From Mytilus californianus (lineage: Eukaryota): a stretch of DNA of 64,000 nt. Below, piece by piece: positions 1,784-63,716 of the stretch. A program made the position numbers and the translations under genes. The DNA is taken from positions 47,554,001-47,618,000 of the forward strand of contig NW_026262690.1 of the NCBI RefSeq assembly GCF_021869535.1, given 5' to 3'. How positions within the stretch are numbered: position 1 is the first letter of the stretch; each line of letters begins with the position of its first letter. The notes beneath the pieces are model-generated. The model saw nothing but the letters and a program-made list of their open reading frames with translations. It ran no database searches and was not told the origin of the DNA.

Positions 1784-2960
1784 GAGACACAGACACCTCA
1801 TATCAGTCAACTAATTTGTGATGGTTACCGTACAACTTGTGTAGTGTCTATATCAGTCGTTTTCCTCATAACTCTGTAGGAGCAGTTTTTGTGTAAGGAG
1901 CATATCCATGTTCATTAAGTCCGTATAGTGTTAACATGCGCGAGCGTAACGATTAACTAAGATATGTTAACGCCAAATGATATCACACATTTATCATGGA
2001 TTCTAGTTTGAAGTCGCCCATCTGTGTCAATATGACGGAAAAGATCAAGGTATGAAGCAGACCTTCTAGTATCGATAATCTCCTTAATCTATAGTTCATT
2101 TGGATATATGAGATACAGGCACTCATTGAAATTTTGGTAATTGAGTGACAGGACATTATCAATATATCTGAAAGTGAAAATTAAAGAACTTTGCAAAATG
2201 ATTTTTCTTTTTGTACTTGAAATATTCTGGGTGAATTCTGCTTCTTATGAATGCAAAAACAAGTCGGTCGTTAAAGGTGCACAATAAGAATCTATTTGAA
2301 TACTGACTTTCTGTTTAAATATAAATCCAACAAACTATAATAAAATATGTTGTCGATCAAGAAGTCCAACGTTTTAATGATATCATCTTCGTTGTATTTT
2401 TTGTAGAGATGAGTGTACGATTCCCATTTGGTTAGAAAGAGGTCTTTGGATCTTTCAATTGAGCATGGAAAATAGTTATGTAAAGCGTAGAAAAAAATCA
2501 AAAGTTTTGATATATCTTCAAAATAATAAATATTCTAATTAAAGATTTTGGTGTAGATCTTTAGACTTTTTAAGAATGCATATCTGATTGACACCGCTGG
2601 TTGAATATACCTTCATCTTTAACTTAAGAAAAAATGGTGGTAAGAACTTCAGAAAAAATGTTTTGTCGAGCATCTTAGCGACGTGGCTATATATATATAT
2701 ATATCGTTCTTTATAAAGATTTTTGTGAAGTTTATTTATCCAGAATAAAGACGGAAGATGTTCATTGTCCTTTCTAATGTCAATATCAAAGGAGAGAAGG
2801 AAGTATTTGTGATTTTCTAAAAACTCCTCTTTCGTGAATGATGTAGGGGTATATGTGGGATTCCTAGTTTGGCTGTGAGTTCCAAGTTCTTTAGTTATAC
2901 GTTCTAAAATAAAATATAATACAGAAGCAGATTGGTAAATTTATCTTGTCAATCCCTAAG
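1784..2960 (-). mobile_element. Highly degenerate Naiad-type RT copy
   Basis: Minus-strand fragments LPSLFWINKLHKNLYKERYI, TLDFLIDNIF, SASYLDL and KLYGNHHKLVD match the RT at 18-1485; many stops and indels. Confidence 0.7.
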
Positions 2961-12846: not shown

Positions 12847-13575
12847 ATGTCCGAGACAAAATTAGTAAAGTATCTTCAGAGACCTATTGCACCTGTCAAT
12901 GGTAATTGAAAATACACACCTGTAATATTAGCAGATAGCAAAGGATTTTGTTTAAGAAATCAAGTCACAATTCCAGAAGATAGACATATAAAATGGTGGT
13001 GTAAAAGTGGCTTCAAAATTCAAGACAGTTATAGCTGGCTCAATAACAACATTCATAGTAGAATTAAAAATATTGGAAAAATTCACATCTATATTTGGCT
13101 AGGCACCTGCAATTTAACTACTAAATGCAAGAAAAAGATTACACTGAACAGTCAAGGAGATCAAACAGTTGATTATATTGTGCAATACTTTAACAAATTT
13201 ATTGAACTGTTAAATCAATATCCAAGCCCAAAGTTAACATTTTTAGAAGTACCAGTATATTCTATAAAAGGGTATAATAAATCAACAGACAACAATTTAA
13301 TACAAGAATATAAAACCTTAGATAAAGAACTTGAACGCCAAATATTTGTACTCAATGTACATATAAGACATTTGAAAACCCAACTTAACACAAGCTCCCC
13401 TGATTTCTCCATTCATCTGAATGTTTCTTCGAAACGTCTTACTCGCTCTCGTACGGAAACAGTCCATTACTATAACTACTCATTATACAGTGACGGAATC
13501 CATCCAAAACAAAATTTAGCATTAGTCTGGCTACGTGAAATCTCAGAGAGAGTCAAAACTGACTGCTGGTCGTGA
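12847..13575 (+). pseudogene. SGNH/GDSL esterase-like ORF of the retrotransposon; one premature TGA at 12907-12909
   Basis: ATG 12847 is in frame with track ORF 13180..13575. Blocks ILADSKG (Ser), WLGTCN (GxN-like) and DGIHP (DxxH). Confidence 0.75.
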
Positions 13576-13689
13576 GCAGTGGAGTAATAAGAAATAGCAA
13601 CTGAATAACTGCCGATAGTGTGTCAGTACAGTCTGCATGGGAACTCCAAGCTAACTGTATCTGAGCGCACATACTCAAAATCAGTTATT

Positions 13690-15712
13690 ATGGCGCTAAC
13701 TACAAAAACTCCCAATATCAACACTAGTAACAAAGTTATTGATCACATACACGACTCTGACACCATCACAAAATGCTACAGCTTGAATTTTGAAAAAAGC
13801 CTTGAAAAAGAAACTTGATGCTACAAAACGCACAGAAATATCTTATGAAATAACGGGTGGTGGTCTGACCGCTGAGCTTGACGCAATATCATTTGAGCTT
13901 CTTCTATTTGCTTGCAAGACTCTGTACAATGACATGTCAAATGTTCGCATTGACATAAGCAAAGATAAAGGTGGCAACATAGTACAATATACATTCATGG
14001 TTAAAGATGACAATAATGGAGGCTATACAATCAATCTATATACAACTAGATGCTCTATGTTAGTCAATGGCAAAAAGATAAATTACTTTATTCAGGAAGA
14101 TCTTGAAAAAATCCATACAATCATGAGGAAAACAAATCTGAAAGGCATAAAAATAGACAAAGATAACCTCAATAAATTACTAGCAGATAAGCTTGAATAT
14201 ATTCTAAGCAATATAGACGCTAACAATACAACTTCTGTTGACTCTAACCCTGTTTAATGCTTGAAATGTAAACGTAATTGCAAGACTAGGGCAGTACAGT
14301 GTATAAATGGTCACTGGGTACATTACTCTTGTGAAAAATTATCCCTCACAGAAATTCAAAACCTACCACATATTGACTATTGTTGTAAAACATGTAGCAA
14401 GTAACCTATTACTGTACCGTATGCTATCACGGCTGCTGAAGTTTTATTAAGAGAGGAGACGATAGATGATGAAAAATGTCTAGTGTGCAATGATGAAATG
14501 ACGGATGACAAACAAGCCTGTCCAACATGCAACCACATTTCTCATAACAAGTGCTTCAACATAAACTCTGATCAGTTTTACAGCTGCCATGCAATAGAAG
14601 AACAACGAACTCTTAGTGAAAATCAAACACGGGTAGAAAATAAAAGAAATATCGACGAATTTACTGACCACCAAACGGATGTAAGTCATGATGACACAAC
14701 AACCATTATGGCAAGCAAAAACAACTTCTACAGTGGCCTACAACAGACGTTACAGACAGCAAGTGACCAAGTGAACAATACACCACAAACAGTCATATCA
14801 GAGAAAGAAAGTATGTCTACTACGCCAATGTTAACCAACAAGCAATAACAACAAATTAAGCAAAAAGAATTAAAGCAACAAGAACTTAAACTAAAACAAA
14901 GAGAGGAACAACTACGTTTAAAAGAAGCTGTCGTAAATGATCAATCCTAAGACAAAACTAGACTGTACGAAATGATACATAAACTTGAAGCAAGAAATAA
15001 TGAGCTTGAAAAACAGTCAAGTTCCTATATCACAAGATCAACAATGAAGACAACACAATGAACAGAAACAATGTAACGCAAGAGAGTAGTAGGTCAGACT
15101 CAAATTCAACAAGATAGTCTAGCCAATGCTATAAAGGAAAAAGTCTCAGGCTATATATTAAGAAAGGTAGACAAAGAAATAGATCATCTAATAAGACTAG
15201 AAGAAAATGTAAACAATACTCCTGCTGAAACATACAACTATGGATACTATGACTATCCCTCTATTCCTCCTCATAGTCAACAAGACATTTACTATAGTAG
15301 TCAGCAGCAGAGTTACCATTACCCCTATTATCAACATGATAACTGGTCATACAACCATCACTACTATCCTGATTGTAATGAATATCAAGAATATAGTAAT
15401 AATAGCAACCTCATAACAGTACAATTAGAACAAGAAACAGGAAATATTGATAAAGGAAGGAACCATTCACAACAACAGAACGAAAGAATCAACAAGCACA
15501 AACTCAAAACAACTCAGAACTTCACACATGATCATAATATACAAACAGCCCGTCATTCAGAAACTCCACAGAATGGGTTTACAGGATTGAACAAGTACAA
15601 CGCTCTACATACCGAGGGACAACCGATTTTTTACAGTGATCAAAGCAAAAATCAGAAAACAAATTTAGAACATTTTTTATACCAAAAAAGCCTCAGACAG
15701 CCGCCATTCTGA
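13690..15712 (+). pseudogene. LINE ORF1 with two Cys/His (PHD-like) fingers and a coiled-coil segment; disrupted
   Basis: KKKLDATKR...TGGG...YTINLYTTRCSMLVNGK; CLKCKRNCKTRAVQCINGHWVHYSCE; CLVCNDE...CPTCNHISHNKC; QKELKQQELKLKQREEQLR. Stops and frameshifts present. Confidence 0.7.
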
Positions 15713-15719
15713 TAAAAAG

Positions 15720-18700
15720 TAGCGAAGATGAAAATACAGATGTAAATAGTAGACAGTGCCTGAATGTTTTATCTTTTAACTGTAAAAATGTAAATACTTG
15801 TGGACTATAATTTAATGATGTAAATAAAATTGCGGATATATGTTTGCTACAGGAAACATGGCTATTTAGCTGTCAAACGGAAATGCTTAATGAATTGAAC
15901 CAAGAATATATTGGAATTGGTAAAGCCGTCGACTCAAAAGATCCAATCCCTCCAACACATATGCCTAGAGGTCACGGAGGTGTCGCAATCATGTGGAAAA
16001 AACAACTTGATAGTTATATCACACAACTTCCAGATGGGAACGAGCGTATACAATGCATTGAATTCAGGAGAGCAGAACCACTTCTAATCATTTCAGTATA
16101 TCTGCCTTGTAAGGGGTCATCAGACAGTATAGAAGAATTTCAGGAGTGTATAGATCTACTACACGAAATATACTCAAAATTTAAAGATACTCACATCATA
16201 CTACTTGGAGGAGATCTAAATGAAAATGCAAACCAATTTTCTAATAGTGAAAGATCAAAACATCTTCAGGAATTTATGAAAGAACATAATCTTTTAACTA
16301 AAGACCTAGGTCCGACCTTTATACACCCAAATGGTTGCGACTCGACTTGCATTGACTTCTTCTTATATAGCGAAAACTTCAGCAGGAGTATTGTTAAAAT
16401 CATCAAGCTTGAAAACATACCTGGAAACATCTCAGACCACTACCCTATCGTAGCAAGAATTAAATATGACTACTTTATACATAATAAACCTAACAAAAGG
16501 GTATGTCCGACTCCGAAAATCAACTGGGACAAAGTAGATATTGAGAAATATAATTCAACAATAGAAAGTGGCATATTAGAATTGAACAAAAACATCCAAT
16601 CTATACAGGATATTGAACTTGCTTATATAGACTTAAATCAACTATTATCCAAGGCGGCATCAACTTCAGGACCAACCAGACGAATAAGGAAGAAGAAACC
16701 AAAACTACAAGTAATGACACCAGAAATTCGTAAAGCTATAACTGACAAGAAAAATGCATACTTTGATTGGAAACAGAACATCCGACCTAATGATCCCAAT
16801 AATCAGTGGTTACAGAAGAAAAAAGTAACAACTTGTAACCTAAGAAAAGAGTGCAGGTTAACACTAGCAAAACAACAACTAGAAAGGAAAACTGAATTGA
16901 TTAATGCCAAAAGTAACAACTCCAATTTATTTTTCAAACTTATCCGACGTCAAAGAGGAAGATCTAGTATGCATATTGATGAGCTAAATGTAAACGGACA
17001 AAAATACAACACTGAAGGGGGAATCTTGGAGGGCTTTAGAGAACACTTTGCAAATCTTGCTGAACAAAGTGATAATAGTCAATTCGACCAAACATATATT
17101 GAACAGGTAGACAACGAATATGCTACTATTATAGATATATGTAAACATGACTTCAAGCACATTCCAGTGAAGAAGCAAGAGGTCAAGGATGCCATTAAAA
17201 GCCTTAATCGAAATAAATCCCCAGATACCTATGGAGTCACTGCTGAAAATTTAATTCATGGTGGAGAAATACTTGCCTCATATATACAAACTCTACTAAA
17301 CAGCTCCTTTAAATTCTGCTTTATACCTGATATTATCAAATTTGGAATATTAACACCAGTCTTTAAAAATAAAGGCAACAAGAATGACGCAAAAAATTAT
17401 AGAGGCATCACAATAACTCCAACTCTATCAAAAATCATAGAAACTGTACTTAAATTTGGCATCAATCCCAAAATTTTCTGTCTACAAAATCCACTCCAGC
17501 GAGGCTTTACCAAAAACGCATCTCCTTTATATTGCTCATTAATTATGGAGGAATTTCAACGAGAGAACAAAGATCTGAAAAGAGAAACAATATTTGTCAT
17601 GCTAGATGCTAAGGCAGCCTTTGACGTAGTAAAACACTTAAGCCTTATACGTAAATTATTTCATATGGGACTCACACCGCAAGAAATACTCATGATTGAT
17701 GATCTATATAAAAATGCAAGATCCAGTGTCAAATGGAACGGTGAACAATCCAATGCATTCAATATTGAACAAGGTGTTCGACAAGGCGGTACACTTAGTG
17801 CCGACCTTTACAAAGTTTATGTAAATGATCTATTAACGAAATATGTAACACCGGTTTTGGAGGACATATTGGAATGATCAACTGTAGTGCGCCTACATGC
17901 GCTGATGATCTTACCTTAACAAGTAACTCTCAGTTTGAAGCGCAAATACTAGTCAACATAGCTAACGACTACAGCAAAAGAGAGTCATATATTATACAAC
18001 CTACTAAAAGCGTTGTACTGCCTATACAAACTAACACCATTACCCACAATGATATGACACTCCTTATGGATGATAGGGAAATGCCTACAGTTGATAAAAC
18101 CACACATATTGGGATACAAAGATCAAACTGTAACACACAACTAGTAACAGCGGAGGAAAATATTAAGAAGGCAAGAAGAGCTTTATACAGTTTAATGGCA
18201 AGTGGCTTGCATGGAGAAAATGGACTAGACCCATCTACATTTATATCCACTTTCAGAACCTATGTTATGCCCATCCTACTATATGGACTGGATGTTATAA
18301 TGACCAACAGCAAATCTTTGAAAATATTACAATCTTTCTACAAGAAAATGATTAAACAAATCTTATCTTTACCAATATCAACTGCAGACCCAGCTATATA
18401 TTTATTATTTGGATTACTACCCATAAATGCTGAAATTGATATAAAAATTATAACATTACTTGGAAATATTCTATGTTCTGACAAATCAACGGTTGAATAG
18501 AAAATCGCCTATCGTCAATTAAAAATTAAATCGTGCAAAAGCAACAGCTGGTTCATAGATGCAAAGAAAATCTGTTTTAAATATCAACTAACAGATCCTT
18601 TAGAATTTTTGGATACTGTAACAACTAAAGAAACATGGAAAAAAAGCATGGTCAACAAAATTAAAACATACTGGCATAGAAAGATCTTGGATGAGAAAGA

Positions 18701-24500: not shown

Positions 24501-26447
24501 TTCGCTCGCCCACAATTTATTGGAACGGAAACATAAAAAAGAATTTGAGTCACTGTATACATATTGTGTCTTGGGCTAACAGATATCAATAATTATACAT
24601 CTCTTATAGAATTAGTTCCACAGAATCGTCTAAAAAACTTCGTGATAGGATGCTCATATATACAGTCCGCCAAAAGTTAAGCACCACCTAAATATAACTG
24701 TCAATATTTTTTTAACTATTGCGAAAAAAATATTTATGTTTGGTGTTATGAATTGCCTTTAGCATACACTAAGAAAATTCATTACGACCAAAAAAATTAA
24801 ACTCCGATATACCCGCCAAGCAACCTTTTATTTAAGGTCATCTGCACTTTTACAAATACACTGTTTCGATGCCTTTAAATCATCTTCCTACTGTCCCGCG
24901 TACAGGTGAAATTTGAACTTCACCAAGTCACTGTGAAATATTGCAAGCGGTAAGTTATCTGTGACTGAACGTTGACAAGCAATTGACATGTCAAATGCCG
25001 GTAGGAGCACTAGGAGCATTGGTAACCATTTCAATGTTAATCGCATCGTCATTGTCAGATTTTTACAACGTCATATTGACACAGGAACTGTAAATGATAG
25101 ACCAAGGTCCGGAAGACCCCGTTTAACTACCTATCGTGATGACATACTACTTATTGGTGGTGCTAAAGCCAACCCATTTACTCCTGCCCCATAGCTTAGA
25201 CACCACTGGCTTCCAGGTGGTCGTGTTAGTGTTCGAACATTGGTTCGTCGACTTCATAGAGGCTACCTAAGAGCACGTCGTGTTGCCAATAGACGTGCCC
25301 TAACAGCCAGGCACCGTATAATCAGGTTTCAAAGGGCTAATGACCATCGACGATGGAACATGAGAACCTGGCAAAATATTTATTGGTCAGATGAGAGTTG
25401 GTTTCTGTTACGACCAATTGACGGCAGAATACGAGTTTGGCGGGGAAATAAAACTGCCTATCACCAAAACAACAATTGCTCAACGACAGCAATCGTTGAT
25501 GGTGGTGTTACAGTATGGGTTTTTTTTCTCATACTGTTGGAAGCTGGGTATGCATATTTTGCAGGGTAACATGAAAAGACAGACATACAGGGATTTTGTG
25601 CTTAGAAACATTGGAGTCCCTCATTTTGAGAATCCCCAACATACGTCAAGACCCTCGTACATGGACGACAACGCTAGATCACACAGGGCAAGGATTGTAA
25701 CCGATTACAAAGACCAAGAAGCCATTGACACTATCTTTTGGCCTTCCATGTCTCCAGACCTGAACCCTATGGAACATGTCTGGGATGCCATTGGCAGAAA
25801 TCTTAATCGCAGAGATCCACCTTTGCAAAATCTTGGCGATTTAAGGGGGGCAATTGTTGATGAATGGAATAAATTTGCTCAGCTAAAGTTCAGAAGGCTT
25901 GTACAGAGTATGAGACGCCGTGTTATGGAACTGTACCGGAAGAGAGGTGGTTACACATCCTATTGACTTAAATATTGACATTAAATTTGCTGAACATACC
26001 AAAGATTATTTGTAGAGACTTTCAATGACTTTGGGTGATTAATTGTTGTAAAAAAATAAAATCAAAGTAAAATTTAAATTCCGTTTCTGATTTGTGTAAT
26101 TTTCACTATTTCTAAGAACGCAAAATTCAAATGCATAGACCAAACTTAAGTTTATGGTTTGTTTATGGCATATGTTAGCAAAATTGCTACGTGAATATTT
26201 TCTCTTTTTCGAGGATTAACTGGTTTTTTTAAATGAAAAAAATTTCGATGCAACAATCGTCAAGAATAGACGTTATTGTGCAGATAAGGAAAAAAATTAT
26301 ATAAGTCTAGAGATTTGCACAACGATACTAATATAAGATGGTATTAAACGAAGATGTTGTTAAGCCGAAATATTTGTCAACACGATTTATTAACAACATC
26401 TTCGTATAATACCATCTTATATTAGTATCGTTGTGCAAATCTCTAGA

Positions 26448-26499
<52 letters not shown>

Positions 26500-29400
26500 A
26501 GTCTAAATTGAAAACAACGTTCAAACCTATGATTGCGTTGGATAAAAACCGCAATTTTTATACGTGTGCATGCAAAAAAATTTCTTGGTAGAGGCGTCTA
26601 AATACAGCACAAACAACATTTTCCAAAAGACCAAAAAAAGTATTAAAGTATATTTTAACAAAACGCATTTGACTAACAGGTCGATCAACAAATGTTCTTA
26701 AACCCTGCTGACTGCCATTGGCGATTGCCAAATAAACGGATCACCGATGTAATAAATGGATCTTAATTTTAAATTTGATACTAAACAGAAAACAAAAAAC
26801 TTGCGGAAAAGATGATATACCGCAAACAAAAGGTTCAAAGGTTTTTGTACACCATATCCGGATTTCGACAAATAATGTCTCTTCAGTGATTTTAGGAATC
26901 GAAACGGTATTTGGAAATCCCAACAATTTACCTCAATTTAAGATAGACTCTTGAATTTTTAGGAGTTAAAATAGGATGAACGGATCATATAAACCCTAAG
27001 GCAAATATATATATATACAAGTCTAAATTGAAAACAACGTTCAAACCTATGATTGCGTTGGATAAAAACCGCAATTTTTATACGTGTGCATGCAAAACAA
27101 ATTTCTTGTTAGAGGGGTCTAAATACAGCACAAACAACATTTTCCAAAAGACCAAAAAAGTGAAAAAGTATATTTTAACAAAACGCATTTGACTAACAGG
27201 TCGAACAACAAATGTTCTTAAACCCTGCTGACTGCCATTGGCGATTGCCAAATAAACGGATCACCGATGTAATAAATGGATCTTAATTTTAAATTTGATA
27301 CTAAACAGAAAACAAAAAACTTGCGGAAAAGATGATATACCGCAAACAAAAGGTTCAAAGGTTTTTGTACACCATATCCGGATTTCGACAAATAATGTCT
27401 CTTCAGTGATTTTAGGAATCGAAACGGTATTTGGAAATCCCAACAATTTACCTCAATTTAAGATAGACTCTTGAATTTTTAGGAGTTAAAATAGGATGAA
27501 CGGATCATATAAACCCTAAGGCAAATATATATATATACAAGTCTAAATTGAAAACAACGTTCCAACCTATGATTGCGTTGGATAAAAACCGCAATTTTTA
27601 TACGTGTGCATGCAAAACAAATTTCTTGTTAGAGGGGTCTAAATACAGCACAAACAACATTTTCCAAAAGACCAAAAAAGTGAAAAAGTATATTTTAACA
27701 AAACGCATTTGACTAACAGGTCGAACAACTGATGTTCTTAAAACCTGCTGACTGCCATTGGCGATTGCCAAATAAACGGATCACCGATGTAATAAGTGGA
27801 TCTTAATTATAAATTTAATACCAAACAGAAAACAATAAACTTGCGGAAAAGATGCTATACCGCCAATATGAGGTGCAAAAATTTGTACACCATATCCGGA
27901 TTTCGACAATTAATCTCTCTTCAGTGATGTTAGGAATCGAAACGGTATATATATATACTACATGAAACTGGCGGTCTTTAAAAATACCACTCACAATGTT
28001 ACATACCATCTTTGTCTATTTCTCGAAACATTTCTTCAAGTTCATCTTTAGTTGGGTTCAGTCCTAACCCACGTACAACACCAGATACTTCAACTCTTGA
28101 AAGTTTCCCTGATTTGTCTTCATCAAAAATGTCAAAGTATTCTCTAATTTCTAAAATATTTCATTACAATTACAGTGCGTATATGTACATTATATATATA
28201 CTTGAATTATCTATCACACTTTGTTTCTTTATTAAAGATAAAGAAACCATCTCTCCTGTATTTGTTTCACTAACAGGGTCAAAGTCAGAATTTTTTATTT
28301 TTCATAGAATTTGAATATTAGAGAGTATCTACTGTACTGTACCCAAACATTTGTCAATATTTTGTTTTAGTTTCCATAAAATCAAAATGTTAATTATTTA
28401 GCGCTACATGTGGCTGTTGAAAACATGTTTATACAATATTTCAAATTGTACATGTTTATTTTAAATGTTGCATCAAAGGACTTCTTTAAACACAATTGTT
28501 TATTTTGTTTGCGTCTGAAAGGCTTCCTTCTGCTTTATAAAAATAATAAATCGAGGTTCAGAGTGAAGCTAACTAAATACCCCAGAAGCAAGATAATTCA
28601 GATGAAAATACTTAAAGAAATATGTTAGAGAACATACAATCTCAGCCTTCTCCTAATGCAATAGCATAAAAAAAACATTTTACTTCTCTAGTACCTGTTG
28701 AACATGCATACATGATTCTACACTTGAAAACAGATTGAAATAATTAGTTCAACTATGTTTCATAAAACAGATACAAATATCTTTATAATAGCAACATTTC
28801 CCCTTCTTTTCATCCAGATTGACTCACACATGCGACTTGTCGCCGCATGATTACTTGCCAGCAGGAAGTCCTTTCCGTGATTTCATTACCGATTGGTGGG
28901 GTTCGTGTTGCTCAATTGATATTTTTTGTATTTAATGTTTTGAAGACTTTTGTTTGTTTTTCTCGTTTTTCTTTAGACCATGATGTTGTCTTTAACTGAG
29001 TTTAAAAAATATTTTATTTTTCAAAATTCCTCAATAACAATTATTCAATAGAAATAAAGGGATTCGGAAACAAGAAAAAGGTAAGTCTCCCTGAGACACT
29101 TATGCTCATGATTTGTGATTTCCCATTTGGTACATTCTTTTTCTTTTTGTTGGACAAAAATCCAACAAGTTTGCAGTTTTTAACTTGCCGTAAGTATTTA
29201 TAATTTGTTCAAGTGTTCTTTAAACCTCACATTACACACATGCAGCTGTGATACTGTATCTATATTTCGATGTACAACTGGATGTTCGAATAGTTGTAGC
29301 AAGCGTCTATTGCAGTTTTTTTTTTTTAATATTTAACCGATCATAACTGTAAAATTTACAACAAATGAATAAAATAGAATAAAGAAATATATAACACAAT

Positions 29401-33791: not shown

Positions 33792-36777
33792 AATCAGATC
33801 TTCTTCAGAGAATCTCCATTAAAGTTTGTTTACTCAAGGGTAAAGGAAAATAGTCAATAAGTTGATTTACTTTTTAATATCTAAATGAGGTATTCTAAAA
33901 ACATTTTCTGACGTGTTCCTAACATGACAATGAAACCTTTAAATAATCCTTAGTGATTCTTTGTATAACCGCAGTTGATAGTAACTATAAATATAAAGGT
34001 TATTGAATTTATATTTAAGATTGATTAAAAGTGGGGTTAAGGTTCAGTTCTTGATGTTTAACATATGAAGCAAGATAACTGTTAATTGATCTATCCATTT
34101 TATTTTGAGTCTATCGAATGAGGATTAGTGTGGTGAAAATGTTTCCATTTAACAACTCATATTTTGACTTAAAAACTGAAATACGAATAAAGTGATATTT
34201 TAGTTACACATCAAAAAGACTTTAACCCAACAAAAAAGCAGTTCGATGATAAACAAACAATTAAACCAAGAAACATGTTCTAAATTGAACCAAGTCTGGA
34301 TAAACGGTTAATGGGATCAACAGAAAAAATCAATGAAATAGCTTATTATGGCAACGAACTCCCAATAGAATAAAAAAAGAGAGAAAACGCAAACAACTGA
34401 CAAGATTCGAGACTTTGAACAGATAGAAAAACATTTAGCGGAATGAGAATAGTATATTGAATAGTCAATCCTAACTACCAATTATCTCGATCATCATCAG
34501 AACACGGATTAAATAGCAGAATACAAATGAATCCAGAACCAAAACTTATTTTAATTGTATGATGAAATAGTTTCAAGTCTTAACACATGAAAGGATGCTC
34601 ACAGTAACAGTTTTGGAAAGCAAATTCAAAGTACTTCATCTGAATAAAAGATGATACGGAAGTTTATGTAATTGGGACATAAAAAAAATGGAAATATAAA
34701 AAATAATAGCAGCAACATTTCCGTTTTGTTTTTAGATTTGAAACTATATATAACGAATTGATATTAATCAGCAAAATTCAAGAACTGAGTGATTCAACAA
34801 CATCATTTAAATTTTAATAAAAATTACGCTTTCGTACACATTTTCTACTGTGATCTAATTATGCTCTATTGTTACTGGTCACAGAATAAAGTATGTCATG
34901 GCATGAAGAGTGCAACGCTGAAAGTACAATAAAGTACCTTATATGTATTTCTAAAAGTAGCCAATTAATTTGGAGTACTATAAAACTCAATTTGCCGACC
35001 TTATCCAATTTATTATACTTTGCAAAAGTTGTTTTCCGTTTTTATCATTCTTGTTGTATCCTAACAGCATTTAAGATCAAATTCTGTATACTGTTGAAAT
35101 AAAAACCTGTCCTGATTTTAAAAAAAAATAGTCCGAGTGGTCTCTCTGATAGACGACTCGACATGCTTCTATAGACGGTCCGATTTATGTTTTGTATAAT
35201 AAGGTCCGAGTTGTCTTTTACTCGGGCATGAGTTGGTTTCATTATAATGTTTATGATGAGTTCCAGTACGGCATGACTCGTGGCAAGATATATATTTTTG
35301 TGTCCGGAATAGCCTCAAACGCAGTATGATGGGTTTTTTTCTCTCATTATTTCATGCGCATGAGCAAATAATCCCCATATAATTTTAAAAGAATTGAAAA
35401 ATATATTTTTATGATAATCATTGAAAATGTTTACCTTAACTTGGTGGTGTTTAGAAGGTTTTTAAGCGAAATACGATATATACATGACAGGCAACAAATT
35501 TAGCATCATAATAGGTAACACAAGCGCTCCTTGAGGAAAAAAAAAGAGTAAACGTACCATACGACAATATCTTAACAATGGAATAAGTAGAGGAAACTGT
35601 GGTTCATGAAGGTCCCTAAAAGTCAAAATGAAAAAAAGCTGTCGGTCTGGTTGTTAGATATTGATAGGCAAAATCAAATACAGCAATATATTCTAAAAAT
35701 GGTCTTTTATCAATTAGAATCAAGACTTAATATGTAATAATTACACTAGACTTTCCTTAGAATAGAAACATGCCTACATTTGCTGACTAGGACATCTATA
35801 ACTCACTGAACATAATGTTTTGGAAAACGTTTTGTGTTTGAACTTGTTGACAGAGCAGTCTATGTTGAACCATCTGTCAAAGCAGTCAGTAAAGGTGTCG
35901 ATGTTGAACCATCTGCTAAAGCAGTCAGCTAGTACTTCTTAGTTAATTTATGTTGATCATTGTCATTTTGCTTAGTTTCATCTGTTACCTATCATAACAT
36001 CGGACTTCTTTTAAACTGAGTTTTACCGTGCGTTTTGCTGTGTGCTTGTTTATTCGACATTGACTAGAGATATATATAGAAGGTTGAGATCTCACAAAAC
36101 ATATTTAACCCCGCAGCATTTTTGCGTCTGTCCCAAGTCAGGAACATCTAGCCTTTGTTTGTCTTGTGTGTTTTTTTTTTTATTTTGGTTCATTTGTATC
36201 TTTCGGAGTTTAGTTTTGCGTCCATATCGCTGAACTTGTTTACATTATTGTTTAGCTGGAACCTGCCACCGGGAGCAGGATTTTCTCGCTGCGTTGAAGA
36301 CCCATTGACGGACTTGGGCTGTTTTCTGCTCTTTGGTCGGGTTGTTGTCTTCTTGACACATTCCCCGTTTCCATTCTCTATTCTACTAGTATCTGTATTT
36401 GTTTCCTGAATTACTAGTACTTAATACACAAACATCTTCTAAATTTTGAATTTGAAACTAACCCCGTTAATGATTTTTTACTAGTCATATACCATCCTTC
36501 TTTTGTAGAACTCTAGACTTCATTGTTGCAGCTTAGCTAAGTATGAAAACGATAACCATGTTGTGACATTGATTCATCGAAATGTTTTGAAAGAAACACT
36601 TTATCAATATTTTACGATATGGAACTCATAATGATTTACTTCACCTTTAATAACAACAGACATGAATACAAAATAGAAACATACTATTCTAAGAAGGTAT
36701 ATGAAATAATCTTCACAAACACTTCACAATTTTGTTGATAATAGACTCTAATGTTTTTGTTCAATTATTTACGTCAT

Positions 36778-39700: not shown

Positions 39701-42700
39701 GTTCGAGGACACGAATCTCCCCGCTCAAGCTTGCTTATAATACATGAAAATACCTTTTAAGAGCATTTGATGTCACTGCTAGTTTTTAAAGAGTTGTATA
39801 ATTTTAGTCTTAGGTATTTTTGTGCTGTGTGTTATTTTCATATTTTCGCTATTTTGTTTTTATTTCTTATGTAATAAGTTTTCTAATAAAATCTGTTGTG
39901 CCCAGTGAATTTCCCAGTTCTTGAATATTGCTTTGCTTCTTTTACTTCGTTAGCTTAACTTGTTTATTTTCGTAAAATTTGCTAGAGGCAAACTAAAGTT
40001 AGAGTGCTGAAACAAAATATTTTGCAATTTTCCAAATTATAAAGGAGCATAACTCTATAACGGTAAGTGACTCACTACCCAAATTCGAACTCGGTCTGCG
40101 AATTTTGGTTCTTTATTGTGTATAAGTTTGTGCATGAGGTAAACTTAAGAAAGGTAAGTATGCTAGATATACTTACTGGAGGTGTGTTATCGACAGATTG
40201 TAGGCATTACTATGGGCACCAACTGTGCCCCTTTAATAGTAGACTTGTTCCTGTACTGTTATGAATCACAGTTTATGGCCAAACTCAGTTAAGACCTTCA
40301 TGTCTAAATTCCATTTAATTGATAAATTCAATAACACTTACCGTTATCTTGATGATATATTTTTCGTTAAATAATCAAGAATTCTCTAAATATACTGCCG
40401 AAATTTACCCACAACAACTTACTTTAAATAAATCAAAAATCAACAGCAATAAGTGTCCTTTCCTAGATTTAGATATTTCAGTTTTACACCAGAAACTTTA
40501 CACAACAATTTAACACAAAAGGGTTGATTTTTCTTTCTCTATTTTTAATTTTCCTTTTCTGGACGGTGATATTCCTCTGGAACCAGCTAAGGGTGTTTAT
40601 ATATCCCAACTCGTTCGTTATGCCCGTGTCTGTAGTGACGTTTTGGATTTCAATGAGCGTAATCTATGTATTACTGATAAATTATTAAGTCTGGGATTTC
40701 GTTACCACAAATTACTTAAAACTTTTACTAAATTCTTCCATAGATACAAAGATTTGGTTTGCAAATTTGGTTGTACCTGTAAAAAACTTATTCCAGACGG
40801 AATAGCACATTCTTAATTCTACGGTGATGTTGTTTACCGAGCCCGGAAATTTATATACGATCCGGGTAAATCCTTTAAATAAACTTATTCTAAAAGGTTA
40901 CCAATTCAACACTGTAATTAGATATTTGAATATTGTTTTTATGGGTATAAATATTGATTTCGTTATCAGTAAATTAAAATCACACTAATGCTTTTGTTAT
41001 ACATGCACTTTAACGATACTACAATCTGTCGATCGTTTGGCATTTTGGCATTGCACAAGTTCATGTTTTTCTCTGATTGTTAGTGACGTCTTTACACTAA
41101 ATCCATTGGATGTTGGATGTGTACTGATTGATATCTTAGTCTTAGATACATGATTTTTTTTTTATTATTTGTTATTGGCATTGAACTAGCTGTCAGTAAC
41201 TGCGAGTACTCTCAGATCTGTACTTAGTGTCCTATTTGTTGCTAGGGATGAAGGATTGATAAATACCCTGTCATGTCCTTCTGTGTTTATGCTTTATGTT
41301 TTTCTGCTTTGTATCGATCTGATGAGTTAAGCCTTTTTTAACTGATTTTTATAGTTTGTTCTTTATGTGGTGTTGTTACACCATTGCCCCAGGTCAGGGG
41401 GAGGGTTGAGCGCTCACAAACATGTTTAACCCCGCCACATTCTTTATGTACCTGTCCCAAGTCAGGAGCCTGTAGTTCAGTGGTTGTTGTTGATTCATGT
41501 CTGTCATATTTGTTATTCGTTAATTGTTTTGTTATAAATTAGGCCGTTAGTTTTCTCAATTGAATTGTTTCATATTTTTCATGTCGGGGCCTTTTATAGT
41601 CGAATATACGGTATGAGTTTTTTCTCTCATTGTTGAAGGCCGTACATTTGCCTATAATTGCTTAGATAGAGTGTGGAAACGAAAATGAGACGGACGAAAG
41701 GACGGACGGACAAGGGTTACACTTAATATCCACTTCGCCTAGCGGCGGGCTCATAAAAAATTGAAGTTATATCTTTTGTCCCAAAATGTACATTTCAATC
41801 AACCTTCACTTTCCTTTTCTCGCTGGAAGTCAGCTATAACCTAAACGTTGCTGCTTATTTTTAGTTCAATAAGACGCATGCAATCAACATAGTCTCCAAT
41901 CTTTGAATTATTGAATAAGAGGCATCTATTTGTAACGGAATGTCAAGATAAAAGTCATTACAAAAGACAATGTTTTAAGTACACCACATTCTTTCTTATT
42001 CATTTTTGTAAGTTTAGGGATATTTTAACCATAAACTATATATGTTGGTGTAAAGTGTAGTATAAATAAATAATAACCATAGAGAAGACTGTATCAAATC
42101 ATACATATAAATAAAGCAAAGAACACTTTCACAAAGGAAAATAAATGAACAGAGTTCCAATGTCACCGCGTTGCACATATTTTATCTGTCCAAGGGCAAT
42201 AACTTATAAAACTTTTGACTGGTTCTTCAAACCTTTTTTTTTATAAATGTTTGACAGAAATGAAAGCTTGTAATGCAATTTTCAATATAATTAATATTCA
42301 CAAGGGGCATAACTCTTTTAAAATTAGTTAATCGGCACTGATTTTTGATCTCGTCCTAGACATTGATAATATAAACCCTTGATATAATTTTTTTCTAAAT
42401 CTAGCAAGAATTGTACACATGAGAGCGCTTGCAATGCAATTTTCCATATAATTAATATTTCCAACGGGCATTCTCTTTTAAAATAAGTTGATCGGCACTA
42501 ATTTTCTAACTTGTCCGAGACATTGCTAATATAGACCTTTGTTATAAATTTGTTAAAAATCCGGCAAGAATTATACACATGAGAGCGCTTACAATGCAAT
42601 TTTCCATATAATTAATATTCCCAACGGGCATTCCTCTTTTAAAATAAGTTGATCGGCACTTCTTTTTAAACTTGTCCGAGACATTGCTGATGTAAACATT

Positions 42701-54039: not shown

Positions 54040-54440
54040 ACCAATTGGAAATGTGTTGAGTCATCAGAGTGACACGAAGCACAATCTTACATAAAGACAA
54101 TAGATCTAAAGTACCGATCTAAGAGTCACAGTTACTGAAAGCAAATCCAAAGCTAATAACAACTAATAAATAAATCATGTTACCTAGACTAAAGTATTAA
54201 TCTGTACACATTCAACGGATTTAGTGTAAGACGTCATATAAAGTTTGGGAAAACATGACCTTGTGCAATGCCAAAATAAAGGTACATTGTATCGACAGGA
54301 AGTTTGAATTTATCAGAATCAAATGTTCGTACCGATAAAAACAAAATTGACAGATCTTACTAGGGTGTTAAACTGATATCCTTGAAGAATAATTCTATTC
54401 AAAGGATCAGTAAATTTACATGGATCACCTTCGAAAAAAA
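54040..54440 (-). mobile_element. 3' fragment of Naiad family 2 including a degenerate SECIS-like hairpin (54186-54245)
   Basis: Coding remnant DPLNRIILQGYQFN; AUGAC-GUCUUACACU-AAA-UCCGUUGAA-UGUGUACAGAU-UAAU (the 3' GA is mutated). Confidence 0.7.
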
Positions 54441-54639: not shown

Positions 54640-55800
54640 GTAAAAAAAAGAGGCAAAATATATCAATAGGATAATACATTAGTCGAAAACAAACTGAATC
54701 GGATAATGCCATGGCAAAAAAAGAAAAATGATCAAAAGACAAACCAGAGCATACAAAACACAACATTGAAAACTAAAGACTGGGCAACACGAACCCCACC
54801 AAAAACCGGGAATGATCTCGGATGCTCTGGAAGGATAAGCATATCCTGCTTAACATGTGGCATTCATCGTGTTGTTCGTGTAAAAAAAACGGTGATAAAT
54901 CTGTTCGTTAGGTCACATTCGGAGAAAAAGAGGACAGAATTGTCGCTATCTATGAAACAGATATTCCGAAAAGGTCAACCAACTCCTTATGGCGTCCGTA
55001 AAATTTTCTAATGGATGATTACAACTTCACCACTCGAAACTCTTGGTTCAAAATCTTCCTTGTAAGCAGCAATCCCAATTCAAGGAAGTTTTGATAGGAA
55101 ATGCAATCTCCGAAAAATCGTATCAACTGGCAGATGTATACTCCATATGCAGGTGCTACTGGAACGTTGATATAAAATAATTTTAAAGTTCACAATTGGG
55201 AATTCTTTTGTTGTAAAGTTTTGTCCTCAACCAACCCTCATTGTCAATTTCTAGATGTAAGTTACGAAATGAGGCCATAACTGTGTCTCTTGTATCCTTT
55301 ATTTCAAGATCGATGGGATAGATGCGTTCAACATAGTCCCCAAACTTTGAACTATTTATTGAGAGGAAATCATCTATATAGCGAAACTTGAAGTTAAAGG
55401 ATAATGCTAGCTTCTTTTCTTTTTTCCTAAAAAGCTCCTGTATGAAGCCAGTCTCAAATGAATAAGGATCAAGTCGACAAGAAGATGAGCACAGTTTGTT
55501 CATGGGAATATCGATTGTTTGTTGAAATACACGTCCCCCAGACGAAACAAATATGTTGTCAATCAAGAAATCAAGCATTTAGATAATGTATGTTTCAGGG
55601 AATTTTTTGTTTGAATCAAAGTGATCTTTTTTACAAAGTACGATTTATCACTTCCTAAGACAAGATACTTGTAATTACGTTGGCCATTCTGTTTTATGAA
55701 ACAAATCAGGACCAATTCTTTCATTTGTCTTTTAGTTTGGAATGGGAAACCATTTTATGACTTTCTTAAACTATTTTCAAAATGCGATATTCGAGTATCC
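54640..55800 (-). mobile_element. Degenerate Naiad family 1 copy (RT C-terminal half + 3' UTR)
   Basis: MLDFLIDNIFV..GRVFQQTI, FRYIDD, YPIDLEIKDT; 3' UTR matches 1560-1780. Confidence 0.85.
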
Positions 55801-58129: not shown

Positions 58130-59420
58130 GTATTGAATAATAAAGGCAACAGTAGTATACCGGTGTTCAAAAGTCACAAATCGATTGAGAGAAAACAAAT
58201 CCGGGTTACAAACCAAAACCGAGGGAAACACATCAACTATAAGAGGAAAACAAAGGAACAAAAGGAACACCGAAGTGCAACAAAAACAAACGCCAACACA
58301 CATAGAAACGAACTATTTGATAACACTGCCATATTCCTGACTTGGTACAGGACATTTTAAGAAAATGGTGGGTTGAACCTGGTTTCATGGCATGCTAAAC
58401 CTCCCGCTTTATGACAATGTTAAAAAATATCGCTAAAACACTATATGACAGAAATACAGCACAAACACACGCAAGAACATTCATAACAGAGAAACGCACA
58501 AACAAATAATATAATAGTCGACACAACATGCAAACCACAGAACAACAACGAACATATTCCATCAACGAAAAACACCACAGGATATAAAAAACAGTGACGC
58601 GCACGTAACTAACATGCAATCTCGAACTTTATACAATTATTTTCACAATATTCGTCCAAACAATTTTCATGACAATGATGGTATGGAAAAGCTATTTTAC
58701 AATTATTTGGACTACAAACGATAAGACATAACAGATAATCCAACCGAAACCATAACAGAAACATCAAAATAAATCCATTAATGTTGGATGTACAAAACAC
58801 CGAGACACGCCGCACAGCAATGCAAATTCACATTCAGTATAACAGTCATATTCGGGAATACGACAACGATGGTATTGAAAGGCAATTTTATAATTTTTTG
58901 GACTACAAACGATAAGACATAACAGATTATCCAACCGAAACCATAACAGAAACATCAGAAAAAATACATGAATGTTGGATGTACAAAATACCGAGACACG
59001 TCGTATAACAATGTAAATTCACTCTCGGTAGAACAGTCATATTCGGGAATAGGTCACGTTCGGTACTTAGCAGACAGACGACATAGATGTTAAACCACAA
59101 TCTAAGACGTGGTAAAAATGTCATTAGTTAGTTTAGACACAGACACATCGTATAGATCAACCAATTCGTGATGGTGTCCATAAAATTTACGGAGTGTCAT
59201 TTTTAATCTAACCTCCTCATAACTCTGTTAGGGCAGTTTCTAGGTAAGGAGCATACTCCTGTATATGAAGTCAGTATAGTGTGAACATGCACGAGCATAA
59301 CGTACCAATTGAGATATGTACACACCATACGACGGAGCAGAGGGTATGTTACTGCAGAGAAATGGGAAATTGATAATTTGATAATCAGCTATAGTAAGAA
59401 AAGAAGTCCAACTTTTTCTG
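58130..59420 (-). mobile_element. 3' part of a Naiad-type element (family 3) with a 191-bp tandem duplication (58671-59052) in its 3' UTR
   Basis: INFPFLCSNIPSAPSYGVYISQLVRYARAC at 59240-59380; gacaa(t/c)gatggtat at 58671 and 58862. Confidence 0.75.
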
Positions 59421-59830: not shown

Positions 59831-61174
59831 TTGAAGAATATTTTGTTTAATAAGTTTAATTCTAATAACAGTATAAAAATTTGATATTTGTATTAGTATT
59901 TTTATTGTTCAATTTAGGCCATATTTGTTGTTTTTATTTCGACTTAGGACATTGTAACTTTTAGGACTATCCTAATGTATATATCCTAACTTTAGGACTA
60001 AATTTAGGACATATCTTATCTTAGGAGACTTTCTTTAATCTGACTTAGGACTAAGACGTGTCCTAAGACCATCCGTAGACACGTCCTAGTCCTAAGACAG
60101 CTTCGTTGACACGGTCACTGATATTTTTGACCTCGACTAAATTGTCTCTCGTCAGTTATAAATGTATCGGGATGAAAACAAGGTCCGAAAGAACTACACA
60201 TAGTCAGTGCGGACCAGAATATGAGCTGATATATACTTGTAATAAAAAAAAAATGTACTCATATCGAATTTTGGGTTGATATGGGTTTTAATGACAAAAT
60301 TCGTTATATTTTTATTCTTGTTTATAATAATGTTTTCGGCCTCTAAATAAAGGCAGCAGTAGTGTACCGATGTTCATATTTCGTAAATCGATTAAAAAGA
60401 GACAAATCAAGGTAATAAACAAAAACCGAGGGAGTAGCATGAAATCCGAAAGGAGCAAGACCGAATGTATCGACGAGGTATTAAAGGGCGCCAAAAATAG
60501 GCAATACGAATTTTCATACCAGATTTGGGATTTGATATTATTTACAAGTCTAAATTTGTCGTATATTAGCTATACCAAAAGGCAATATTCAAACAAATAT
60601 GTATTTATTCTAATGAGATATAATTCGACTTTTCCTGCTCATTTATTTTAAGCCATATAATAAAATTGAGAATGGAAATGGGGAATGTGTCAAAGAGACA
60701 ACAACCCGACCATAGAACAGACAACAGCAGAAGGTCACCAACAGGTCTTCAATGCAGCGAGAAATTCCCGCACCCGGAGGCGTCCTTCAGCTGGCCCCTA
60801 AACAAATATATATACTAGTTCAGTGATAATGAACGCCATACTAAACTCCAAATTGTACACAAGAAACTAAAATTAAAAATAATACAAGACTAACAAAGGC
60901 TAGAGGCTCCTGACTTGGGACAGGCGCAAAAATGCGGCGGGGTTAAACATGTTTATGAGATCTCAACCCTCCCCCTATACCTCTAGCCAATGTAGAAAAG
61001 TAAACGCATAACAATACGCACATTAAAATTCAGTTCAAGAGAAGTCCGAGTCTGATGTCAGAAGATGTAACCAAAGAAAATAAACAAAATGACAATAATA
61101 CATAAATAACAACAGACTACTAGCAGTTAACTGACATGCCAGCTCCAGACTTCAATTAAACTGATTGAAAGATT

Positions 61175-61259
61175 ATGTCTTCATCATATGAATATCAGGC
61201 ACAATCCTTCCCGTTAGGGGTTTAGTATCATACCATCATAACATATATGAGAAGAACAT
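61175..61259 (-). promoter_or_regulatory. Eukaryotic SECIS element, type II
   Basis: Helix I UCAUAU/AUAUGA; core AUGAU (61239-35)/UGAU (61197-94); helix II GGUAUGAUACU/AGGAUUGUGCC (10 of 11 pairs including G-U); apical AAA (61223-21) then CCC-CUAAC-GGG mini-stem. Folded by hand. Confidence 0.85.
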
Positions 61260-61300
61260 AACCCGTGTCATGCCAACAACTGGTTTTTAAATAAATGTGT

Positions 61301-63716
61301 TTAGTGCCGATGCAAAGACCCTATAAGTGAATCAATATTAACGCCAAAATATGCAATCTTTAATGACCTGACAACAGTATCGTAACTATATCCCTTCTTA
61401 ATAAGTCTATTTAAAGGTTTTGTTAGCTTCAGAGGTGAATACTGACATTTTTGTGCTTTATAAAGAATATTTCCATAAAAAATTGGATGTGAAATACCTG
61501 AACGTATAAGAAGTCTGCATGTTGAGCTATATTTACGAATGATGTCCTTATACCGATGATAAAATTTAGTAAATGTTTTGACTAGTTTGTGATATCGAAA
61601 ACCCTGGTGTAATAATTTTTCAGTAATACATAAATTCTCTCGTTAAAATCTAAAACATTGTTACATACACGAGCGAATCGTACAAGTTGAGATATATAAA
61701 CACCGTAAGATGGTGACAAGGGAACGTCACCATCTAAAAATGGATAATTGACGATAGGAAATGAAAAATCATCTCTTTTATCATATATTTTAGTATTAAG
61801 CTTTCCGTTAATGATATAGATATCAAGATCGAGGAAAGGGCAGTGGTCATTGTTAGTATTAGCTTAATTTAAAGTAAGTTCAACAGGATAAATTTCTTTA
61901 GTATACACGCTGAAGTCGTCATTATTGAGAGCCAAAATATCATCCAAATATCTAAAAGTATTATTAAATTTGTGTATCAGATGTTGTTTCGATGGGTCTT
62001 TGCTGATTTTTGTCATAAATTGTAACTCATAGCAATACAAAAAAAGGTCCGCAATAAGTGGTGCACAGTTAGTTCCCATTGGAATTCCGATAACCTGACG
62101 ATATACGGAATCTCCAAAGCGAACAAAAATGTTATCTAGTAAAAATTCAAGGGCATATATAGTATCAAAGCATGTCCAATTGACATAGTTTTTTTGTTTA
62201 TTGCTACTAAAAAATGACCTAAAAGAGTTTGAACATATATATTCACATTCTGACTTTTTAAATGCCCATTTAATTAGGTGTGTGAATTTTTTCTTAATGA
62301 GAATGTGAGGCAATGTGGTATATAGGGTAGAAAAATCAAAACTTTGAACAGATTCAAAATCACCAATATATGCATGTAATTTATCAAGTACTTCCAACGA
62401 GTTCTTGACACTCCAAAAGTAATTAATTCCACTATTTTCGAAGGCCTTATTTGAACAATTTATTATCAGGTTTTTGATTATACCAAGTGTACTGGTAAGA
62501 AGAATAGACAATTTAGTAGTGGAACAATGGCTTGAAGACGAAATGAATCTATATTTGTAAGGTGTTTTGTGTAGCTTCAGAAGCCAAAACATAGTTGGGA
62601 CTTTCATTGTATTTGGTTCTGCATGTAAAGCGGTAGCTCAAAGTTTATGTTTGTTACAGATGTCGTTTTCTGAAAATGGAGTCAGTTGGAATGTTGGTGA
62701 ATTGGTGATTTCTTTTTTCAGAACCTCAATGTAAAATTTACGTCAAACAATAATAATATTATTAGCAGCTTTATCGGCCGGGACAAAAACAAATTCCTTG
62801 GCTAGTTCTTTTAGTTTATGTTTGATACGAGAAATAGGTTTATTGTGGTTATTGTTAAGAGTAAAATGCTCTTTAAAATGTTGAATACGTATATCAACTA
62901 TGTTCATTACTGAATTAAAAAAAAGAGTCCAAAGATTTTTTTGTCAGCTTTTTCCCGTTTTATCCATTTCAAACAGTAAGTATGGAGTGAGTCGTGGATG
63001 ATATTACGACACTCATTCCAATTAATAATTGACGGGGGACGATATTTAGGTCCTTTACTGAGGAATGATTTTAACTCTCGGTCTTGAACGATGTTAAGAT
63101 CTCCTGTTATAACATGGGAAATGGGTCCATAAATGTATTCTGAATTACTGCAATTACATGAAGTAGGTGTATTTTCACTGATATTAACATCTTTACACAA
63201 TTGGCTATAATTAAACACAAATTTCCGGGTAGATTTCTTGTAAATATAACAAATAAGAGGGAGCTCAGTATTATCAAAATATCCCGGAATTTGTTCTTTA
63301 ACAGAATGGTCGTTAAAAATACCGCCAATATTTACAAAATCAAAACCTTTATTGACATACTTTATTTTAATAAACTGTTTTTTATGATCTTCAGGGCGAT
63401 CAATTTTGGGAAACAGTTTAGAATAACAATATGCCATTATAATTTGAACGATTTCATACTTAGGACTGCTATATGAAATTGTGCTGCAATCCTCAAAAAT
63501 TTTATTTAACTTATTAACCGGTAATGAACAGAGCTTTGTTAACAGATAATGTCTGCCGTTGTTTTTTGAAATAGAAATTAGGTCCGAAATATTGGTATGA
63601 TTGGTCCGAAATTTTCTTTGATTGCGATTTTTTCTACGACCATGAGAACGGTTTTTACGAACAGTTTTAGAAACTATATCCAAAATGTTAACAGAATGCA
63701 TTATACATGAAGTCAA
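61301..63716 (-). pseudogene. Naiad RT polyprotein ORF with a candidate selenocysteine codon at complement(62743-62745)
   Basis: One reading after correcting two +1 homopolymer insertions (A7 and T8 near 62915-62942). In-frame TGA 62743-45 aligns with Cys; second TGA 62638-40; TAA 61864-66 (probably from AAA); natural stop 61301-03. Confidence 0.85.

Follow-up and report, generated by a model that had tools for sequence, protein, structure and literature searches.

Naiads are Penelope-like retrotransposons whose diagnostic features, as given in the accessible text of PMC8557442, are a KR-rich block and CxC, GxKY and DKA motifs upstream of the reverse transcriptase (RT). Four of them, Naiad_Mmer and Naiad_Scon of clams and Naiad_Sdum and Naiad_Smim of spiders, are described as encoding selenoproteins (Sec-Naiads), and in all four a UGA occupies the cysteine position DKA+8 (Craig et al. 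2021, PMC8557442, accessible text). This codon is visible as TGA in the consensus DNA of Naiad_Mmer (Mercenaria) and Naiad_Scon (Sinonovacula). The curated Naiads of Mytilus (Mcor and Mgal) carry no selenocysteine (Sec) flag in the accessible portions of the same paper, and a literature search whose scope excluded most subscription papers found no further paper on Sec-Naiads. The UGAN/KGAW quartet of SECIS elements, which forms a kink-turn, and the type II form of the element are defined in the accessible text of PMC3753652. Here we describe a mussel Naiad copy, element A, which lies in a 64,000-nucleotide stretch of Mytilus DNA (hereafter the window) and combines an in-frame UGA at DKA+8 with a SECIS-like hairpin downstream of its ORF.

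A decayed mussel Naiad carries an in-frame UGA at a conserved cysteine position

The features of element A, in the order in which they are read on the minus strand, are given below.

60659-63695, minus strand: 5'-truncated Naiad (Penelope-like) retrotransposon, about 3.0 kb; the match to protein cluster P0121 begins at 63695
63612-63659, minus strand: KR-rich block, a Naiad feature in the accessible text of PMC8557442
63150-63158, minus strand: CxC motif, with two Cys codons in element A
62919-62922, minus strand: frameshift in a T run, approximate position
62767-62775, minus strand: DKA motif, from the translation
62743-62745, minus strand: in-frame UGA at DKA+8, predicted selenocysteine codon
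62638-62640, minus strand: additional in-frame TGA, where the residue is neither conserved nor Cys
61939-61950, minus strand: RT catalytic motif YLDD, from the translation
61864-61866, minus strand: premature TAA private to element A; cluster P0004 is open there
61636-61648, minus strand: second frameshift, approximate position
61301-61303, minus strand: terminal TAA of the family ORF; P0004 ends at 61304

The translation runs from the KR block through CxC, GPKY (GxKY) and DKA into an RT with YLDD, and on these translated motifs element A is a decayed Naiad Penelope-like retrotransposon. It has neither the endonuclease domain nor a start codon, and its 3' end is common to two other partial copies down to 60658-60659. 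The GIY-YIG endonuclease missing from this truncated copy can be found in P0133, whose overlap with element A is 91-94% identical, and in L002, a related locus outside the window. When the L002 protein was modelled (pLDDT 94), its best 15 structural matches were telomerase RTs, in keeping with a clade marked by a telomerase-like RT with an insertion in the fingers.

Rfam matches in the element region and in the 64-kb window included no hammerhead ribozyme, and no pseudo-LTR (pLTR) or tandem arrangement was seen at the element A insertion; complete Naiads without a pLTR are listed in the accessible text of PMC8557442. Pfam gave no family for two ORF pieces of the window and only sub-cut-off noise for P0004, P0121 and P0133, a sequence search of solved structures with an RT profile gave 0 matches, and the Naiad_Mgal consensus, compared by eye with elements A and B (the latter a Cys-type copy described below), showed no agreement with either. 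A 26-nt inverted repeat (60037-60103) lies just downstream of element A.

The 5' truncation, two frameshifts, premature TAA and second TGA make element A a dead relic that cannot make protein, and with such damage present a single TGA, judged from element A alone, could be decay; 92 of its 796 codons are one step from TGA. The second TGA (62640) is probably decay, since 7 of the 10 relatives examined align there and none has Cys.

A SECIS-like hairpin lies downstream of the terminal stop codon

The hairpin that follows the ORF has the following parts.

61175-61259, minus strand: predicted SECIS element, in the form with an apical mini-helix, helix I and outer extension included
61259-61251 with 61182-61175, minus strand: outer helix of the hairpin
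61250-61245 with 61189-61184, minus strand: helix I, 6 bp
61235-61239, minus strand: 5' side of the G-A quartet, AUGA-U; UGA invariant in 6/6 aligned SECIS elements
61234-61225 with 61207-61198, minus strand: helix II, 10 bp with one A.G mismatch, or 11 positions counting U.U
61221-61223, minus strand: unpaired AAA after helix II, invariant in 6/6 aligned SECIS elements
61219-61217 with 61212-61210, minus strand: apical mini-helix, 3 bp
61194-61197, minus strand: 3' side of the G-A quartet, UGAU; GA invariant, 5/5

It stands in the sense orientation in the 3' UTR, 1503 nt downstream of the in-frame UGA (62745) that aligns to Cys, and its core, AUGAU opposite UGAU, conforms to the UGAN/KGAW quartet. 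From the terminal TAA (61303-61301) it is 41 nt to the outer helix, 50 nt to helix I and 61 nt to AUGA. A sequence-only reading of this DNA had placed the hairpin about 45 nt after the stop, in the 3' UTR and in sense orientation, and had linked it to a UGA some 1.5 kb upstream, all of which agrees with these measurements. Re-reading the minus strand returned the same hairpin sequence, and pairing bore out the extendable 6-bp helix I, the tandem G-A quartet, the 11-position helix II with one mismatch, the AAA and the third mini-helix that had been proposed. The accompanying label of type II stands in so far as the mini-helix is present, but it draws no real distinction from the published Naiad SECIS elements labelled type I.

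That reading had also named a non-significant covariance-model score as a ground for refutation. The hairpin matches the full Rfam SECIS_1 model (RF00031) at 31.7 bits, which is significant (E 6e-4 for 1.5 kb of sequence and 0.025 for all 64 kb), and is the only SECIS among the 10 Rfam matches in the 64-kb window; however, this is 3.3 bits below the Rfam gathering score of 35 bits, and a default Rfam scan is therefore empty. Model R1, built only from four SECIS elements outside the window, ranks the hairpin first of its 16 matches (17.4 bits, E 0.098). Fold z-scores are -3.9 for 61165-61270 and -2.7 for 61175-61259, and the fold energy is -23.5 kcal/mol in the sense orientation versus -14.9 kcal/mol in the antisense. 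With a SECIS descriptor that includes helix I and allows at most one mismatch, and that was composed after the hairpin had been seen, the hairpin is the one place in the window that matches, and none of 15 shuffled versions of the window gave a match. The core pattern without helix I occurs across the whole window 5 times against 1.4 expected when one mismatch is allowed and 11 times against 9.1 when two are, and when only the 150 nt following the stop are shuffled it appears in 4 of 1000 trials; being frequent in shuffles, the bare core pattern was dropped as evidence.

The stop at DKA+8 is shared across the element A family

Protein homologues of element A break at the same site. P0121 (96% identical, 54 members) ends exactly before the DKA+8 UGA, and P0004 (97% identical, 133 members) begins at the next Met after it. 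Counting only ends within 3 residues of the alignment, 10 of 162 linker homologues end exactly before DKA+8 (P0121 and 9 more diverged proteins) and 28, P0126-P0131 among them, exactly before the first CxC cysteine, while any other position accounts for at most 3. On the RT side, 74 of 120 homologues start after the DKA+8 site (48 of these within +2 to +9), 37 span it and 9 have unaligned N-termini. From these protein ends, by which the codon itself is deduced, the stop at DKA+8 is family-wide and not private decay of element A.

At DKA+8 the 37 spanning RT homologues have C in 26 cases, W in 10 and R in one, and the close sister RTs P0001-P0003 (74-78% identical) carry Cys. Tryptophan likewise stands at the first CxC cysteine in 18 of 122 proteins versus 0 at the second. 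We infer that W at Sec sites derives from TGA, either through gene calling under a Trp code or by change of TGA to TGG. P0133 has W at three endonuclease Cys positions, two of which are TGA in the related loci L001-L004 and U in Naiad_Mmer, a pattern that suggests, with codons deduced from protein, about four Sec sites in the element A family.

Naiad copies and genes elsewhere in the window

Three further Naiad copies bear on the comparison.

1-1790, plus strand: element B, Cys-type Naiad control, with TGT at DKA+8 (183-185)
41083-41132, plus strand: SECIS-like hairpin of the GUGA type, downstream of the stop codon in element C, a related truncated Naiad at about 40179-41560
54196-54237, minus strand: degenerate copy of the element C hairpin, with the 3' GA lost and deletions (element D)

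RT motifs A and B are 83 aa apart in element A and 87 aa apart in element B; the canonical spacing is shorter, as would fit an insertion in the fingers. No SECIS was found in the 300 nt after the element B stop. The pattern of the element C hairpin arises in 3 of 1000 local shuffles, and the hairpin was missed by Rfam at E<=5 and by model R1, as was that of element D by Rfam and by R1. Elements A, C and D all keep an outer helix around the hairpin. Additional fragments, Cys-type or unclassified, lie on the minus strand at 1838-2913 (beside element B, inverted), 54683-55749 and 59048-59383. Several Naiad ends have a 3'-terminal block in common (60900-60976, 41396-41475, 35928-36388 and 8555-8887), and inspection by eye shows a similar 3'-terminal motif, a candidate RT recognition signal, at the consensus ends published for mussels and clams. 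The terminal-repeat copies at 35928-36388 and 8555-8887 were considered as SECIS carriers and set aside as too short to hold one.

The remainder of the window includes a cluster of calmodulin-like (EF-hand) genes at about 6.5-8.3, 21.6-29.5, 37.3-39.4 and 47.1-48.5 kb on the minus strand and 50.7-51.6 kb on the plus strand. One exon, 23337-23089, encodes 83 aa that are 100% identical to a calmodulin-like protein of Mytilus californianus and 93-98% identical to the corresponding proteins of four other Mytilus species, which marks the window as animal DNA. A LINE-type element with APE endonuclease and RT domains occupies 15811-18500 on the plus strand, further long ORFs lie at 12910-15712, and a DDE transposase-like ORF is next to a tract of (TA)n and a tandem repeat of 520 nt (25364-25966 and 26298-27948).

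Related loci pair in-frame UGA codons with covarying SECIS elements

A scan of GTDB contigs yielded 32 Naiad loci (L001-L032). All come from records of bacterial genomes, and P0046 bears a Campylobacter protein name; the loci are probably animal DNA contaminating bacterial assemblies. L001-L004 belong to one family and form tandem Naiad units on two contigs. Five of their codons read TGA. Four stand at conserved Cys positions, namely the one before GIY-YIG, the first cysteine of CCHH, the first of CxC, and DKA+8, and the fifth lies in the linker; with all five UGAs read through, the L002 ORF stays open for 1035 aa. SECIS_1 scores are 42.1-42.8 bits in L001-L004 and 39.3 in L006, all above the cut-off of 35, and 29.2 in L005, which is below it. 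The first stop after the RT in L001-L004 and L006 is the UGA of the SECIS core AUGA (L001:3162, L003:2547, L004:798 and 4339, L002:501, L006:1069), so that the SECIS overlaps the end of the ORF. These scores come from a scan of 14 loci; scanning of the other 18 returned no SECIS. Cysteine occupies DKA+8 in 17 loci, and SECIS_1 was found in none of the five whose downstream sequence reaches 750 nt or more (L007, L015, L016, L017 and L020), the others being too short. From SQLxR to the C-terminus, L007, L008, L016 and L017 measure 68-73 aa, compared with 118-143 aa in the SECIS-bearing loci.

When element A was aligned with L001, L003, L005 and L006, a set amounting to only four independent families because L001 and L003 are near-identical, 10 of 13 pairs changed on both sides. 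With the structure drawn from the same sequences on which it was tested, 62 of 65 cells were paired (95%), a level that 0 of 500 shuffles reached and that compares with 35-57% for slid partners; the 3-bp helix III was paired in 15 of 15 cells. Element C was left out of this count because alignment A4 misplaced its longer loop. Taken alone, the window copies A, C and D show two-sided change at 4 of 13 pairs, a level reached in 14 of 500 shuffles. Conservation of the quartet and covariation across copies were the checks that the sequence-only reading had proposed, and both came out in its favor.

Predicted Sec-type and Cys-type Naiads alternate within one large clade

To place these copies we used a FastTree of 81 RT sequences, left from 127 after thinning at 85% identity among sequences of the same state; L014 and L015 served as the root, and the published Sec-Naiads lay outside the tree set. 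Element A, all four SECIS-bearing loci in the tree and the proteins that start after the DKA+8 site group in a single clade (support 0.954); element B and Cys-type loci lie outside it. Cysteine at DKA+8 recurs within the clade, including in the nearest sisters P0001 and P0002, and linker proteins 61-71% identical end at CxC. Similarity and contig sizes suggest that the CxC-ending linkers pair with the Cys-bearing RTs. These patterns point to switching between Sec and Cys among sister families within one large clade, which is a new detail. By eye, the C-terminus of the Mercenaria Naiad resembles those of clade members.

Proposed recoding of the UGA and rival explanations

The comparisons above show the SECIS structure, its covariation, the family-wide stop and the joint occurrence of a UGA replacing Cys with a SECIS. 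We consider it very probable, on comparative grounds, that the hairpin serves as SECIS to a selenoprotein-encoding Naiad family of Mytilus and that the UGA is recoded to Sec. An intact member would encode a GIY-YIG endonuclease, a linker and a telomerase-like RT in a single ORF, with UGA at at least one conserved Cys. The kink-turn of eukaryotic SECIS elements recruits SBP2 and eEFSec, and established knowledge of SECIS elements implies both SBP2 binding and Sec insertion here: the kink-turn of the G-A quartet is predicted to bind host SBP2, and SBP2, eEFSec and Sec-tRNA would together recode the UGA to selenocysteine. The entire RT core is encoded downstream of the DKA+8 UGA, so RT would be made only upon successful recoding, and the element would therefore depend on the host Sec machinery, in effect placing a selenium-dependent throttle on RT production.

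The same locus could be viewed as a vestige, in which a family with a fixed premature stop persists as non-autonomous elements or split ORFs and the hairpin is kept for some other reason, such as recognition of the 3' end by the RT. Such a history would fit the defective state of element A, the degraded hairpins of elements C and D, the outer helix shared by all three and the occurrence of the protein clusters as split pieces. Nonetheless, it is at conserved cysteines that the stops occur, and every one visible at the DNA level is TGA; apart from this stop, P0004, with its 133 members, and P0121 keep an open frame, the hairpin is missing from Cys-type Naiads though they too need 3' recognition, and the invariant bases are the SECIS-specific ones, so we regard a vestige as very unlikely. 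Next to negligible, in our judgment, is the probability that an AT-rich hairpin stands by chance beside a random nonsense codon in a decayed element. The score below the Rfam cut-off, the bare core pattern at about 1.4-9 per shuffled window and the other stops of element A would all be compatible with such an accident, but it is contradicted, and largely refuted, by the family-wide stop, the covariation, the first rank under the independent model R1 and the above-threshold SECIS elements at the same place in relatives.

A host transcript might instead have co-opted the SECIS of the element A insertion. In element A an almost complete hairpin accompanies a broken ORF, and donation of SECIS elements by transposons has been proposed (PMC8557442, accessible text). 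However, the protein of element A is only 3-5% diverged from its own family, which explains an intact hairpin without co-option, and the nearest host exons found, in a window that holds 300 nt upstream of the element, are the calmodulin-like ones at about 50.7-51.6 kb on the other strand; co-option thus appears extremely unlikely.

A broader picture can be offered tentatively, and we hold it to be less likely than not. Sec-Naiads may constitute one old, large and widespread clade that has kept its SECIS while Sec shifted among metal-ligand-like cysteines, with selenium as a throttle and SECIS elements scattered in the process. Sec would sit at DKA+8 in the element A family or at the first CxC cysteine in its sisters, one SECIS would serve up to five UGAs, and the UGA of the SECIS core would itself act as the terminal stop in some families. 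Were this true, the Cys-replacing UGAs, all of them upstream of the RT core, would let selenium supply and recoding efficiency throttle retrotransposition, and the many truncated 3' ends would spread SECIS elements across mussel genomes.

Apart from this broader picture, many of the apparent stops in bivalve Naiads probably encode Sec, and annotation therefore presents active Naiad families as split or broken genes. With Cys and Sec variants occurring naturally at identical sites, one can ask what Sec does at non-redox, zinc-finger-like positions and whether selenium controls transposition.

Comparison with known systems

Eukaryotic SECIS elements of RF00031 share with the element A hairpin the UGAN/NGAN core, a helix II of 10-11 positions, apical adenines, an extra helix and helix I; the hairpin differs in falling 3.3 bits under the gathering cut-off and in that it would serve a transposon ORF, not a host gene. 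Cys-type Naiads (Naiad_Mgal, Naiad_CGi, element B and L007) have the same domain order and motifs, but with Cys codons at all Sec sites, no SECIS and a shorter C-terminus.

The closest systems are the four published Sec-Naiads, which have the same order of KR block, CxC, DKA and RT (PMC8557442, accessible text). As in these, element A has a UGA at DKA+8 and one SECIS just after the ORF, and its family probably has, judging from P0133, the UGAs before GIY-YIG and at the first CCHH Cys as well. Unlike them, element A is truncated and broken, and its AUGA lies 61 nt after the stop, whereas the published elements start 1-21 nt after it or overlap it; the relatives L001-L004 also have a UGA at the first CxC cysteine, a site that the accessible text of PMC8557442 does not list. 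The published Naiad SECIS elements are labelled type I, and by eye the Mercenaria and Sinonovacula sequences can form a similar apical mini-helix of 3-4 bp. The host is Mytilus rather than a clam or spider. The element A family is very probably a selenoprotein-encoding Naiad in a new host lineage, with a mechanism that has already been published, and with it the range of selenoprotein-encoding transposons, so far clams and spiders, would come to include mussels.
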